Shown here: piece by piece, positions 1 to 4,825 of the stretch | How positions within the stretch are numbered: position 1 is the first letter of the stretch | How the letters are laid out: each line of letters begins with the position of its first letter | Origin: Candidatus Heimdallarchaeota archaeon | Lineage (GTDB): Archaea; Asgardarchaeota; Heimdallarchaeia; Heimdallarchaeales; Kariarchaeaceae | Reading direction: 5' to 3' | DNA length: 27,584 nt | Assembly: GCA_015523565.1 (NCBI GenBank) | Contig: WAKA01000048.1 | Location: forward strand, 1 to 27,584 | Notes under the pieces: model-generated | Told to the model about the DNA's origin: nothing | Databases searched by the model: none | The model's input: the letters and a program-made list of their open reading frames with translations, nothing else | Position numbers and translations under genes: made by a program

Positions 1-203
1 GAAAAGAAAAATATGCAATAATAAAACTTGGAGGGTCTGCAAGAGACCTAACAAAGGGAAAAAGATTGATAGAAACTGAGATCATTGGTGAAACTGTCAG
101 CTTACATACATTCGAAAAGATAACACTGCCAAATCCGAGAATCTCTTTCGACAAATCATGGATATTCAGATATGACACATTTAAATTTTTGAAGAGCAAT
201 TAG
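1..203 (+). CDS. 3' end of a hypothetical protein (partial, runs off the window)
   Basis: Frame from nt 3 is open for 66 codons (KEKYAIIKLGGSARD...FKFLKSN) to TAG at 201-203, followed by a T-rich tract. Not in the ORF track because no start lies in the window. Confidence 0.65.
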   Translation, partial: KEKYAIIKLGGSARDLTKGKRLIETEIIGETVSLHTFEKITLPNPRISFDKSWIFRYDTFKFLKSN

Positions 204-245
204 ATCGGCGAAATGTATTTATTTTATTTTTATTTAAATTAAAAT

Positions 246-1583
246 ATGTGGAGAACTGCACCTCAGCATGTAGGAGGTGCGGTATTCTCCCGCGAACCCC
301 CATTTGTCCACATTTACGTTGTACTTCCGATTTTTGTTCCAAATCCAGTTTTCGATGGACTGGAATTTGGTGGAGAACAATTAAGTTTTAGGGAATGGTT
401 TCCATCTGCATTTGAAGTCTTAAAATCAAATGAGAAGTCATATAGTGCAAATTGTGGGGTGGAATTACCCTCATTCATTCCGAAAATTGCAGAAGTAAAT
501 AAAGAAATGGAAGATGTTTTTGTACAAATTGCAACAAGACCAAAACAGTATATTCTTGTATCTGAGTCTGGAATAGGGGCCTTTAAAATCAAAACTGCAT
601 TCAAGGGGTTTCATAATTTGGGAAAAGTCATCAAAATTTTGGAGAGTTTAAAAAAAGAAGTTCCAAGGCAGTTGAATGATTTATACCCCAATTATAGAAA
701 AGGAGAATGGCAGATATTAATGATGGTGAGTGATAAGCGTGATACGATAGGTGTTTTTGAACAGACTCTTCAGAACCGTTGGCATAGTGTCAAACTAGAG
801 GCGATAAATAACAAGACATGGATTTATTCAGGAAATGGTCTTTATGTTGTTGCAATGAAGGAAATGAAAAGCAAGAATTTTCAGAAGGTTCGTACACTAT
901 TGTTGAATGCATTTGTTCATGGAAAAGTCAGTTGCCTTGTGGCAAGGTATTTTGGTGTTATCCACAAACATATTTCAGATGAAGGGCAATGGCAGGTTTT
1001 CATGCATTGGCTCAATCCGTGGATAATTGGAGGATATATTGGCAGGAAAAGCCCATATTGGGGCATTTATTTGCAGACTATCAAGCAAATAATAGGACAT
1101 GGGAAATGTGATGAAGCCTTTAAAGGCAATGTAATAGGTTATATAAACACCCATCAATTGGATGAAAAGACAATTCTTATTGCAAGAGCCGCCTATACAA
1201 TTCCTTTTGACAAAAGAAGCAGATATATCCCTTTAATAGCAAGTCCATCAGATCAAAAAACCAGTGGCAACAAACCAATTTCAGAAAAAATCATATCCAT
1301 ACTTTATGAGCAAGCGAACCAATACGTCAAGGGTGAAGAGCTGACACCTTTTCTTACTGTAAGCAAAATATGTGTTAAATTAGGAGATAAAAAAAGGCGG
1401 AAGACAAGTGAAGTCAGAGAAAATCTGGATAATTTAACACATCTAGGCTACTTAAGGAAGAAAAAATATGTTGGTTCGGGAAGTAGGTCAAACAGTTACC
1501 AATATGCCCTTAAAACAATTGATGAGGATCAAAAACAATTAATAATTAAATATTTTGAGGATATTCTTGTTAAGGGGGAGTAG
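246..1583 (+). CDS. Hypothetical protein with probable C-terminal winged helix-turn-helix
   Basis: 445-aa ORF. The C-terminus (IISILYE...LTVSKICVKLG...SEVRENLDNLTHLGYLRKKKYVG...YQYAL) has wHTH spacing. The N-terminal ~350 aa are not recognised and the start is uncertain. Confidence 0.6.
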   Translation: MWRTAPQHVGGAVFSREPPFVHIYVVLPIFVPNPVFDGLEFGGEQLSFREWFPSAFEVLKSNEKSYSANCGVELPSFIPKIAEVNKEMEDVFVQIATRPKQYILVSESGIGAFKIKTAFKGFHNLGKVIKILESLKKEVPRQLNDLYPNYRKGEWQILMMVSDKRDTIGVFEQTLQNRWHSVKLEAINNKTWIYSGNGLYVVAMKEMKSKNFQKVRTLLLNAFVHGKVSCLVARYFGVIHKHISDEGQWQVFMHWLNPWIIGGYIGRKSPYWGIYLQTIKQIIGHGKCDEAFKGNVIGYINTHQLDEKTILIARAAYTIPFDKRSRYIPLIASPSDQKTSGNKPISEKIISILYEQANQYVKGEELTPFLTVSKICVKLGDKKRRKTSEVRENLDNLTHLGYLRKKKYVGSGSRSNSYQYALKTIDEDQKQLIIKYFEDILVKGE

Positions 1584-1707
1584 GAGGGCCATTATATGTG
1601 AGATCCTCATCGTCGTCTCCGCCACCCATGAAAATGGATACGGCGGCAATAGTCAAAGTTGCAATCCATGAAAGGATCAGGGTTGGAAATGCTAGAACTA
1701 TGTTCAT
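1570..1707 (-). CDS. Putative 45-aa single-pass membrane microprotein
   Basis: Hand translation: MNIVLAFPTLILSWIATLTIAAVSIFMGGGDDDEDLTYNGPPTPP*. It has ~25 hydrophobic residues followed by a Gly/acidic/Pro tail, and is below the ORF-track length cut-off. Confidence 0.6.
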   Translation of the reverse strand: MNIVLAFPTLILSWIATLTIAAVSIFMGGGDDDEDLTYNGPPTPP

Positions 1708-1908
1708 GCTAATTTATCTTATAGGTTGGAGCAAAGGCAGAGAATTTTGCCCATTGAGAATCATTGGTTGAATCTAATAAAATCAAAGAGATAAGGCTGA
1801 ATTTGTAGAAAAAGGCAGTGGCAAACCGTTCAAATGCATTTCAGGACACTATACATTTTCCAGCCTTAAATATTGAAATGTGAAAGTATCGGAGGAATTC
1901 TTATATAG

Positions 1909-3111
1909 GTGATGGATACGGAGATATTTGTGGAAATCATAAGGGGGTTCGAATACGTCCTCAAGCGGGAGAAAATATCCTCTACATACAAATATGCCTT
2001 ATTGACGTCAATAATGGACTACATTATAGAAAACCCCGCAGAGCTTCCAAAGAATGGCTTTCATTACATCCCCGTGCTGTATCTTGCTAAAAGGTTCCTT
2101 TACTATTATTTCCCCACAACTTTCCCAAATATCATAGAGCAAAGCGGTACAAGGCTTGCAATACAGAAGGAGATAACAAATAGGCTTGGCGACATATTTC
2201 CCAAACAGATGGAAAGCATCATAGGAATAAGGGATATGATAGAATCAGGGGAAGAGCTTCCAGAAAAGCTGGTCAGAACCTTGATCATGATAAGGTCAAC
2301 AATTCTCAAGCAACCACTCAGATACATAAAAGTGACAAGCAATGAGGAAAAGAATGTAATCCTTGGGAAGAGGACGAGGATCAGAGAGCAAAAGTTCACA
2401 ATATTTGGTCTTGAAAACACAAAGATTGAGAGACCATTTTCCTATGAGGAAGCACGATCGGATTCAAGATGGATTGGAAGCAGATACCAGCAGACATTTA
2501 ATGAAATGATTGCATCAGAGTATTGTTACATATCAATGGGAGCTTACACATTCCGTGAGCTGACAAAATACAGGTTCTTTCTTAGGGATGCCATTATCAA
2601 AAAATGGATAGAAGCAACGAGGAACTATCTGAAGAATGATACCCAACTGTATTCAAAGCTTAACAGGTTTATTGAAGGGTTTTCCGTCATTGACAGGAAC
2701 CCTGAAAGGAATTCTGCATTCATCACCAAATTCAGGATGACAATGTTCAGGCATTTCCAGCAAAAAATCAGATGCATTTACTGTGAGAAAGAACTGGAAC
2801 TTGAAAAAACTGAGATTGACCATGTGATCCCTTGGAGCAAGCTTCCAATCAACAAGTTTTGGAATCTTGCGCCGTCATGTAAAACATGCAACCTGACAAA
2901 ACATGACAAGATAGTTGAATTTGATCAAGATTTAAGAGTAAAAATCCAAAACCTGATTCAGAATTGGGTTGCCCTCTTCATAAGGGATGAAAGAATCAGG
3001 AGGGATTTTGCCTCGATGGAAGACAGTGAATTTCTTAAAAAGCATGATCCAGATATCATATCGAGAATATACACTGAAAGAATCCAAGAGATCATAGAAA
3101 CGCTATCATAG
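1909..3111 (+). CDS. HNH endonuclease (McrA-like C-terminal domain) with large N-terminal domain
   Basis: CIYC...EIDHVIPWSK...NKFWNLAPSCKTCNLTK is a zinc-binding HNH motif. The N-terminus carries STYKYALL...RFLYYYFP. The start could be the ATG at 1912. Confidence 0.88.
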   Translation: MMDTEIFVEIIRGFEYVLKREKISSTYKYALLTSIMDYIIENPAELPKNGFHYIPVLYLAKRFLYYYFPTTFPNIIEQSGTRLAIQKEITNRLGDIFPKQMESIIGIRDMIESGEELPEKLVRTLIMIRSTILKQPLRYIKVTSNEEKNVILGKRTRIREQKFTIFGLENTKIERPFSYEEARSDSRWIGSRYQQTFNEMIASEYCYISMGAYTFRELTKYRFFLRDAIIKKWIEATRNYLKNDTQLYSKLNRFIEGFSVIDRNPERNSAFITKFRMTMFRHFQQKIRCIYCEKELELEKTEIDHVIPWSKLPINKFWNLAPSCKTCNLTKHDKIVEFDQDLRVKIQNLIQNWVALFIRDERIRRDFASMEDSEFLKKHDPDIISRIYTERIQEIIETLS

Positions 3112-3215: not shown

Positions 3216-3287
3216 GCACAGGTGGCAGAGTGGTTCATGCAGCGGTCTGCAAAACCGCGGACGGGGGTTCAATTCCCTCCCTGTGCT
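3216..3287 (+). tRNA. tRNA-Cys (GCA), no intron, CCA not encoded
   Basis: Acceptor stem GCACAGG/CCTGTGC, D arm GCAG-AGTGGTTCA-TGC, anticodon arm GCGGT-CTGCAAA-ACCGC (GCA at 3249-3251), T arm GGGGG-TTCAATT-CCCTC. Discriminator is U, as expected for Cys. Confidence 0.97.
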
Positions 3288-3293: not shown

Positions 3294-3412
3294 GGAATTT
3301 TGGGAAAATATCGAAATGGGGAGATAAGTTTTTACCGTCCCCCAATATAAAAGATAATATATGACTTAATTGCTTTTAGCATTGCAAATATTAGATATAG
3401 AGGTAGATAACA

Positions 3413-3682
3413 ATGGAATTTTGTCCGAAATGTGATGCCTTATTGGTATTGGATGTAAAGAAAAGCAAGAACGGAAAACCCGTCTTCAAGTGTCGGGATT
3501 GTGATTACACATCGACAGATGAAAAAATAGTGAAAGAATACATAATAACTGAAGAAATTCCACATTCTGAAAAAGAGAAACTGGAAGTTATAGAGAGTAC
3601 GAACGACTTTGCCATCAGTGACGAGATACGTGAAGAGCTGACAGAGCAGTATCGTGAGTCATTAGAGGGGTTTGAATATTAG
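3413..3682 (+). CDS. TFS/RpoM (Rpb9/A12/C11 family) paralogue with N-terminal zinc ribbon and linker only
   Basis: MEFCPKCDALL...FKCRDCDY is the N-terminal ribbon and EYIITEEIPHSEKEKLEVIE is a TFS-like linker. There is no second CxxC..CxxC and no QTRxxDE motif. SD-like GAGGT lies upstream. Confidence 0.85.
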   Translation: MEFCPKCDALLVLDVKKSKNGKPVFKCRDCDYTSTDEKIVKEYIITEEIPHSEKEKLEVIESTNDFAISDEIREELTEQYRESLEGFEY

Positions 3683-3937: not shown

Positions 3938-4825
3938 ATGAGCATTTCAGATGATGATTTGGAACAAAAGCTTGAAATTCTTCTCCCTAGAGCTTTAAGG
4001 AATTTAGGGTACATCATCACACCGGAACAGCTCGCCACAAAGGAAGATTTTGAAGACCTAAAACAAAGAATGGATGAACGTTTTCTAAAGATTTTTGAGA
4101 GAATGGAAAAACATGACAATGAGATCAAAGAGATTAAGGGAGACATAAAGAAAATCTGGGAGGAAATAAAGGAAATTAAAGAAGAGAACAGGGACATTAA
4201 GAGCGACATAAAGAAAATCTGGGAGGAAATAAAGGAGATTAAAGAAGAGAACAGGGACATTAAGAGCGACATAAAGAAAATTTGGGAGGAAATAAAGGAG
4301 ATTAAAGAAGAGAACAGGGATATTAAGAGAGAATTAAACCGCCAGAACGATAGAATAAATAAGCTTATGTTAGTAATGAATAATGGTTTTGCCAGCATTG
4401 ACAATCAGTTTGCCAAATTTTCGATCAAATACGGAAAATTGCGTGAAGAAGAAGCGAGAAAATTACTTGATGAGGTACTGAAACACTTTGGGGTTCCCTC
4501 CTCCAAAGTTAGAAACATTCAAGTTATAGACCAAGAAGGAATTGTGTTTGCAAAGGGATATATCACAGATGTTGATGTTTATTTGGAAACTGATGAAGAA
4601 GTCTGGACCTTTGAGTTCAAGGCCAATTGCAACAGGTTTGATTTATTTGGGTTCCACAAGGTTTGCGAATTGCTTGAAAAGGGATATGGAAAAAAAGTGA
4701 CAAGGAAAATTCTTGCCTGTTTTGACATTTCTGATGAGGTAAAACGAGATGCCCAAACATTTGGCATCGAAATCTGGAAATCAAAAACCATGATACCAGG
4801 TCTTGTTTTATCAGATGACCTTTGA
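3938..4825 (+). CDS. Coiled-coil protein with C-terminal PD-(D/E)XK nuclease-like domain (DUF3782-like)
   Basis: Long heptad region followed by TDVDVY...WTFEFKAN and ...AQTFGIEIW, typical of archaeal coiled-coil/restriction-fold proteins. Confidence 0.75.
   Translation: MSISDDDLEQKLEILLPRALRNLGYIITPEQLATKEDFEDLKQRMDERFLKIFERMEKHDNEIKEIKGDIKKIWEEIKEIKEENRDIKSDIKKIWEEIKEIKEENRDIKSDIKKIWEEIKEIKEENRDIKRELNRQNDRINKLMLVMNNGFASIDNQFAKFSIKYGKLREEEARKLLDEVLKHFGVPSSKVRNIQVIDQEGIVFAKGYITDVDVYLETDEEVWTFEFKANCNRFDLFGFHKVCELLEKGYGKKVTRKILACFDISDEVKRDAQTFGIEIWKSKTMIPGLVLSDDL
4142..4330 (+). repeat. In-frame tandem repeat, 3 x 63 bp (21 aa = 3 heptads)
   Basis: Units start at 4142, 4205 and 4268 (GACATAAAGAAAATYTGGGAGGAAATAAAGGARATTAAAGAAGAGAACAGGGAYATTAAGAGM) and encode DIKKIWEEIKEIKEENRDIK[S/R]. 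Confidence 0.97.

Follow-up and report, generated by a model that had tools for sequence, protein, structure and literature searches.

TFS2 (sso0605) was described by Fouqueau et al. in 2017 as a factor 'conserved in all Crenarchaeota', and the published description matches the architecture that we call here a half-TFS (PMC5715097). The supplementary table of that paper gives two TFS factors each for Lokiarchaeum, a Thorarchaeote and Heimdallarchaeote AB_125, while a further paralogue, TFS4, is confined to the Sulfolobales (PMC5715097). Mutants of tfs2 were unobtainable in S. islandicus (PMC6249222), and the TFS2 protein Saci_1587 is up after heat shock (PMC10653856). For TFS4, the cryo-EM structure of the complex with RNA polymerase (RNAP; 7OQY) places the N-terminal ribbon between the upper jaw of the enzyme and its lobe, has the linker give the jaw two beta-strands, and shows the C-terminal ribbon bound to the negatively charged funnel rim helices of the Sulfolobus enzyme (PMC8448823).

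Here we report that an 89-aa gene of a Kariarchaeaceae genome (Candidatus Heimdallarchaeota archaeon) corresponds, on sequence comparison, to archaeal TFS2 and is its Asgard (Heimdall-group) orthologue, a half-TFS of a kind known since 2017. It lies in a window of 27,584 nt, the whole stretch of contig WAKA01000048.1 that was analysed, with the following features:

3216-3287: tRNA-Cys.
3343..3363, + strand: A/T-rich promoter-like block CAATATAAAAG.TAATATATG, a candidate TATA box/BRE, its core invariant in five genus members.
3400..3404, + strand: Shine-Dalgarno-like GAGGT, 8 nt 5' of the ATG, in a block, GAGGTAGA, that is invariant in 5/5 genus members.
3413..3682, + strand: TFS2-type coding sequence of 89 aa (P0001), stop codon TAG included; orthologues of 85-90 aa in 40/41 genomes of the order.
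3413..3520, + strand: N-terminal zinc ribbon (PF02150), residues 1-36, with ligands C4, C7, C27 and C30.
3521..3598, + strand: TFS-type linker, residues 37-62, with Y43, H51 and E58 invariant; it aligns with the linkers of TFS_arch, 7oqy_Y and Rpb9.
3599..3679, + strand: acidic C-terminal tail, residues 63-89, containing an AlphaFold2-predicted helix and aligning with the crenarchaeal TFS2 tail.
3620-3673, + strand: amphipathic helix predicted by AlphaFold2, residues 70-87.

The length between the block at 3343-3363 and the start codon differs among the five genus members, and we infer a promoter role for the block.

The first 60 or so residues of the protein belong to the TFS family. Pfam Zn_ribbon_RPB9 (PF02150) matches residues 1-33 at 32 bits (gathering cut-off 25.2), NCBIfam TFS_arch (TIGR01384) is matched only at model positions 1-54 of 101, corresponding to ribbon and linker, and the TFS4 model NF047723 only at positions 1-46 of 90, with 23 bits against a cut-off of 120. 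The four zinc-ligand cysteines are invariant or nearly so in family alignments, Y43, H51 and E58 of the linker are conserved on a par with them in the order-level alignment, and the linker motif Y..I...I.H is common to half-TFS, TFS4 and Rpb9. The C-terminal TFIIS-type ribbon (PF01096) finds no match in the 89-aa protein, which has no cysteine beyond residue 30, and the 255-nt spacer on the 3' side of the gene holds no CxxC...CxxC remnant in any frame. An earlier sequence-only reading of this DNA had described a TFS/RpoM paralogue in which N-ribbon and linker are retained and an acidic helix stands in for the catalytic ribbon, with no C-ribbon remnant downstream; the open reading frame at 3413-3682, whose translation gives precisely the 89 residues quoted there, and the spacer, which lacks even a CxxC pair in any frame, are in agreement with both statements.

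The predicted fold is consistent with these matches. AlphaFold2, run on a 45-sequence alignment, predicted a ribbon that leads through an extended linker into a helix spanning residues 70-87 (pLDDT of the blocks 83-93, mean pLDDT 78.5), and an earlier model from six sequences had the identical layout. When the model was compared with the PDB by Foldseek, the top matches were nearly all chain I of Pol II, III, IV and V (Rpb9, C11), together with TFS4, and the ribbon superposed on the Rpb9/C11 chains with an rmsd of 1.3 A over 34-35 residues. Given the small size and the flexibility of the model, nothing in this comparison reached E <= 0.001. At the level of sequence, the best PDB match of the family profile is TFS4 (7oqy_Y, E 2.5e-10), over ribbon and linker.

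In place of the second ribbon the protein ends in the tail STNDFAISDEIREELTEQYRESLEGFEY. Nine of the 27 residues from 63 to 89 are Asp or Glu and two are Lys or Arg. On a helix wheel, I72, L76, Y80, L84 and F87 form a single hydrophobic stripe with the acidic face opposite, and the tail would therefore be an amphipathic docking helix rather than a featureless acidic extension. In the order-level alignment E78 and E82 do not vary, and the tails encoded at 20 loci of other Asgard families conform to the pattern ...E(E/D)R.E....L(E/D)(F/Y)(F/Y)..., the ...FEY terminus being limited to the protein's own family and a few neighbours. A tail-only HMM of 28 positions, searched against about 22,000 open reading frames, returned family members only and no decoys. 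Iterated, it converged within the Heimdall-like group (32 matches) and did not reach the crenarchaeal tails at E <= 1e-3; the next-ranked matches (E 0.002-0.2) were to half-TFS tails, those of Desulfurococcaceae among them, a ranking that is suggestive of kinship between Asgard and crenarchaeal tails. Several known C-terminal signals were considered by sequence inspection, namely the HbYX proteasome motif, the MIM1/MIM2 ESCRT motifs, the PIP box, the alpha-tubulin-like EEY and the CIA-targeting tripeptide [LIM]-[DES]-[WF], and all of them misfit the conserved positions.

The 89-aa gene is confirmed as a real gene under strong purifying selection. Five relatives, 87-89 aa long and 54-84% identical, came from a word-indexed search, and a six-frame search of related genomes of the order detected a match at full length (about 85-90 aa) in 40 of 41; nearly every one of the 41 also holds a second match, of about 116 aa and over ribbon and linker only, that of the canonical TFS. 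Conservation is well above what chance would give: synonymous changes have reached saturation among the five genus members (pS 0.78-1.09), against a pN of 0.06-0.24, for a pN/pS of about 0.1-0.25, with the tail (pN 0.18, pS 0.94) under constraint equal to that of the linker. The canonical TFS of the same genome lies on another contig (G000:C219:54729-55070), aligns with the model over its full 101 positions and has the QTRSADE motif; it is the separate full-length TFS for which the sequence-only reading had asked.

Beyond the order, a HMMER search of 1.84 billion representatives recovered about 60 clusters, 80-100 aa in length, that share this layout and rank above ordinary TFS, and a protein-atlas look-up placed the nearest clusters among archaeal 'hypothetical proteins' of 84-95 aa with PF02150, from Promethearchaeota and Thermoproteota. 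An even sample of the Asgard phylum (201 genomes, 27 family codes) gave a match in 197 genomes, and at least 125 of the 201, from 19 families, have a full-length half-TFS among the matches listed, full-length meaning a short frame that covers at least 80 of the 88 profile positions. Full-length members were also found in 27 of 71 genomes sampled evenly from the phylum to which a Thermoproteales genome belongs (Thermoproteota), and further members are present in Hadarchaeales. Homologues of the same architecture across Asgard genomes, which the earlier reading had called for, are thus plentiful. The findings that would have spoken against it, namely homologues that all have a C-ribbon, an indel, or a tail that is not conserved, did not appear, given the intact gene in 40/41 genomes of the order and the tail's pN of 0.18.

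Several comparisons bear on the identification as TFS2. A profile of 45 members retrieves Aeropyrum pernix APE_1007a and proteins of Thermofilum, Fervidicoccaceae and Nezhaarchaeales, as well as those of Odinarchaeum, Njordarchaeum and Sigynarchaeota. A scan of species genomes with the crenarchaeal alignment brought up members from Saccharolobus sp., Sulfolobaceae RB850M and Sulfolobales HS-7, and one from a 'Candidatus Heimdallarchaeota' MAG that is nearly identical to the proteins of the order to which the Kariarchaeaceae genome belongs. By hhalign, the order-level alignment matches crenarchaeal half-TFS proteins with a probability of 99.5% (E 1e-22) across 83 columns that take in the tail, and matches the three Sulfolobales proteins just named on their own with 98.9% (E 1.8e-17) over residues 1-82; in the latter alignment ISDEIREELTEQYRE of the 89-aa protein pairs with LSEELEHEREEYYKE. 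Homology to Sulfolobales TFS2 extends over nearly the whole protein; the tail by itself, short and biased in composition, is only weakly detectable. For the ribbon and linker columns (165 rows, 130 half-TFS and 35 TFS; 60 columns), a free quick maximum-likelihood tree was largely unresolved, with 11 label changes, and a tree constrained to hold the 130 half-TFS together against the 35 TFS scored 52.7 lnL units above it (p-AU 0.845). A single origin of half-TFS is the best-scoring arrangement and compatible with the data.

In light of these matches, the earlier interpretation stands in part: the paralogue architecture is as it was described, and the proposal of a 'new class of RNAP modulator' finds no support, the same architecture having been published as TFS2 (PMC5715097) and the hhalign probability against Sulfolobales TFS2 being 98.9%. 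The protein has the four-Cys ribbon, the TFS linker, the predicted Glu-rich helix in place of the C-ribbon and a TFS1 alongside, as do the TFS2 proteins of Sulfolobales and other Crenarchaeota (Sso0605, Saci_1587, M164_1524), which likewise lack the C-ribbon, are about 90-100 aa long and share their genomes with TFS1. Identity between the two groups is about 30-40%. The Heimdall-group tail is the shorter, stopping directly after the helix at ...EGFEY, whereas crenarchaeal tails read ...EEYYE.(.)LE... and continue into a poly-acidic extension.

The other relatives differ in what follows the linker. TFS1 (TIGR01384) is homologous in ribbon and linker, and its RNAP docking site is presumably shared, but the TFIIS-type C-ribbon with its cleavage-stimulating acidic Asp-Glu hairpin (RSADE) is absent from the 89-aa protein. 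TFS4 is likewise a non-cleaving TFS paralogue; it keeps a shortened C-ribbon whose basic Lys hairpin sits on the acidic funnel, where the 89-aa protein has an acidic helix, and it is virus-induced and found in Sulfolobales only, whereas half-TFS is near-universal among Asgard archaea and in many TACK genomes. The N-ribbon fold and linker motif of half-TFS are also those of eukaryotic Rpb9, A12.2 and C11 (RPC10), and like Rpb9 the half-TFS would presumably be a non-cleaving occupant of the jaw-lobe site, but all three have another zinc ribbon as well and belong to their polymerases as stable subunits, whereas half-TFS has the first ribbon and linker only.

Based on these observations, we suggest that the 89-aa protein is an Asgard TFS2 orthologue that docks at the RNAP jaw-lobe as a constitutive, non-catalytic accessory factor, a reading to which we would assign a probability of roughly 0.6. 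By analogy with TFS4, and by extension with TFS1, Rpb9, A12.2 and C11, the ribbon would bind between upper jaw and lobe and the linker would add beta-strands to the jaw; contact with RNAP is something that we infer from homology over about 60 residues. A protein docked there and having no catalytic hairpin would occupy the TFS1 site and would not stimulate transcript cleavage. Its helix would be tethered near the funnel entrance, and the conserved hydrophobic face (L76, Y/F80, L/I84, F87) may bind a further surface, most likely on RNAP, for example the funnel rim helices. The rim is itself acidic, so an acidic helix placed there is disfavoured unless the hydrophobic face and the two Arg make the contact, and entry of the helix into the secondary channel, as first envisaged, is somewhat disfavoured by the same negative charge. 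In published structures of RNAP purified from Sulfolobus, TFS2 is not known as a subunit, and any association with RNAP would therefore not be stoichiometric. Under the reading proposed here, TFS2 would be Rpb9-like rather than a stress-induced inhibitor.

The surroundings of the gene differ between this contig and its relatives. Upstream of the tRNA-Cys, at 246-3111 (+), lie a 445-aa open reading frame without a Pfam match and a gene whose 400-aa product ends in an HNH endonuclease domain, both missing from the syntenic locus of the relatives examined. Downstream, at 3938-4825 (+), a 295-aa coiled-coil protein that matches DUF3782 and, weakly and at its C-terminal end, PD-(D/E)XK (PDDEXK_10) contains three near-identical tandem repeats, IKKIWEEIKEIKEENRDIK..., and is followed on the 3' side by the gene of an NAD-dependent epimerase. 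In relatives, the half-TFS gene stands between the gene of an LRR protein and the same epimerase gene, the nuclease genes are absent, and the next gene begins 54 nt past the half-TFS stop codon in close relatives; with so short a spacer there, the 295-aa gene here is an insertion. We also considered a 'defence islet' around the tRNA-Cys that would include the half-TFS, and rejected it, as relatives keep the gene without the nucleases. The nuclease genes are thus best seen as insertions around a resident core gene and not as a functional unit with it.

Two further sets of observations concern other loci. In a sister family of the Heimdall group (f2; loci L023-L034, L095) a THUMP/ThiI-like gene comes next after the half-TFS, with AMMECR1, NFACT (RqcH-like) and zf-AN1/M50 peptidase genes within about 3.5 kb, a synteny seen among close relatives only. 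On contig C4 of the Kariarchaeaceae genome, outside the window, at about 1-3100 (+), the gene of RNA polymerase A'' holds an intein-like insert of about 450 aa that starts right past ...GEPGTQMSL and ends ...THN|T, and the N-terminal extension of this A'' protein consists of tandem KTYITQEQLDSLMEEI-type repeats running off the contig start.

The first alternative to a constitutive accessory factor is a dedicated inhibitor or anti-TFS resembling TFS4, which would block TFS1 or inactivate RNAP under stress or virus attack, its helix possibly plugging the NTP-entry funnel or pore. Such a protein would be expected to have the docking ribbon and linker of TFS4 and to lack the catalytic hairpin, as half-TFS does, and the HNH nuclease and PD-(D/E)XK coiled-coil genes that adjoin the half-TFS gene here could be taken to point the same way, had they not been missing at the relatives' syntenic locus, where their absence marks them as insertions and not partners. 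The heat-shock rise of Saci_1587 (PMC10653856) speaks for this alternative too and makes a stress-linked role of TFS2 possible. However, half-TFS has a near-universal distribution and conserved synteny in Asgard and TACK genomes, whereas TFS4 occurs in Sulfolobales only (PMC5715097); attempts to delete tfs2 in S. islandicus gave no mutants (PMC6249222); and the negatively charged funnel rim binds a C-ribbon that is basic in TFS4 (PMC8448823), where the half-TFS tail is acidic. The acidity of the rim, the near-universal presence of the gene in the core genome and the failure to delete tfs2 together favour a constitutive accessory role, and we consider a TFS4-like, virus-induced inhibitor, which the sequence-only reading had raised, a poor fit and unlikely.

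An adaptor is the second alternative: ribbon and linker would sit on RNAP while the helix recruits ABCE1, the ribosome, or a chromatin or repair factor, coupling transcription to another process. The conserved hydrophobic docking face and the flexible linker between helix and ribbon are what such an adaptor would need, and ABCE1 is suggested by gene order in other archaea. In several Thermoproteota orders a half-TFS gene lies 15-200 nt upstream of the gene of ABCE1/RLI (Fer4_RLI and two ABC domains) on the same strand, as in Desulfurococcaceae, Thermoproteales, a Thermoprotei MAG and Methanosuratincola; at the paired loci L049, L052, L055, L057, L060, L064, L072, L097 and L129 the half-TFS stands at about 4000-4300. 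The pair was found in 12 of the 27 half-TFS-bearing genomes of the even sample of 71 Thermoproteota, and could point to a partner outside transcription. Against this, it is absent from two Sulfolobales genomes, from Aeropyrum, and from the Kariarchaeaceae locus and its order, and it occurs at 1/20 other Asgard loci. Archaeal housekeeping genes, moreover, often cluster without physical interaction. A co-fold of the 89-aa protein with the genome's own ABCE1 (P0215) scored 0.00, with the mark at 0.32, and counts neither way; a literature search found no paper on tfs2-ABCE1 pairing. On balance, we hold an adaptor to be improbable.

A broader proposal, to which we give little credence, is that half-TFS is an ancient RNAP accessory predating the TACK-Asgard split and near-universal on both sides of it, its helix linking RNAP to translation and ribosome recycling, for which the recurrent tfs2-ABCE1 pair of Thermoproteota would be a hint, or else the archaeal forerunner of a permanently bound, non-catalytic subunit like Rpb9. 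Less probable again is that the protein is no RNAP factor, its ribbon having been re-used for the ribosome, ABCE1 or nucleic acid and its resemblance to TFS being ancestral only. The ABCE1 gene pairing would agree with this, and our literature search found neither a functional characterisation of TFS2 nor a report of its binding to RNAP, Sulfolobus included; however, linker residues that touch the jaw in TFS4 and Rpb9 are conserved like the zinc ligands, which would be hard to explain if the RNAP site had been abandoned. Finally, a truncated pseudogene or assembly artefact of canonical TFS would account for the missing C-ribbon and for nothing else, and is virtually ruled out by identical length and tail in dozens of independent assemblies, purifying selection that reaches the tail, and a downstream spacer free of ribbon remnants.

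At this locus, then, the half-TFS is an ordinary core gene, and the interest rests with the TFS2 family. The hydrophobic face of the helix and the tfs2-ABCE1 gene pair offer concrete experimental handles in Sulfolobus. Conserved throughout the Crenarchaeota, resistant to deletion in S. islandicus and found in most of the sampled Asgard genomes, half-TFS was probably part of the transcription machinery that the archaeal ancestor of eukaryotes inherited.
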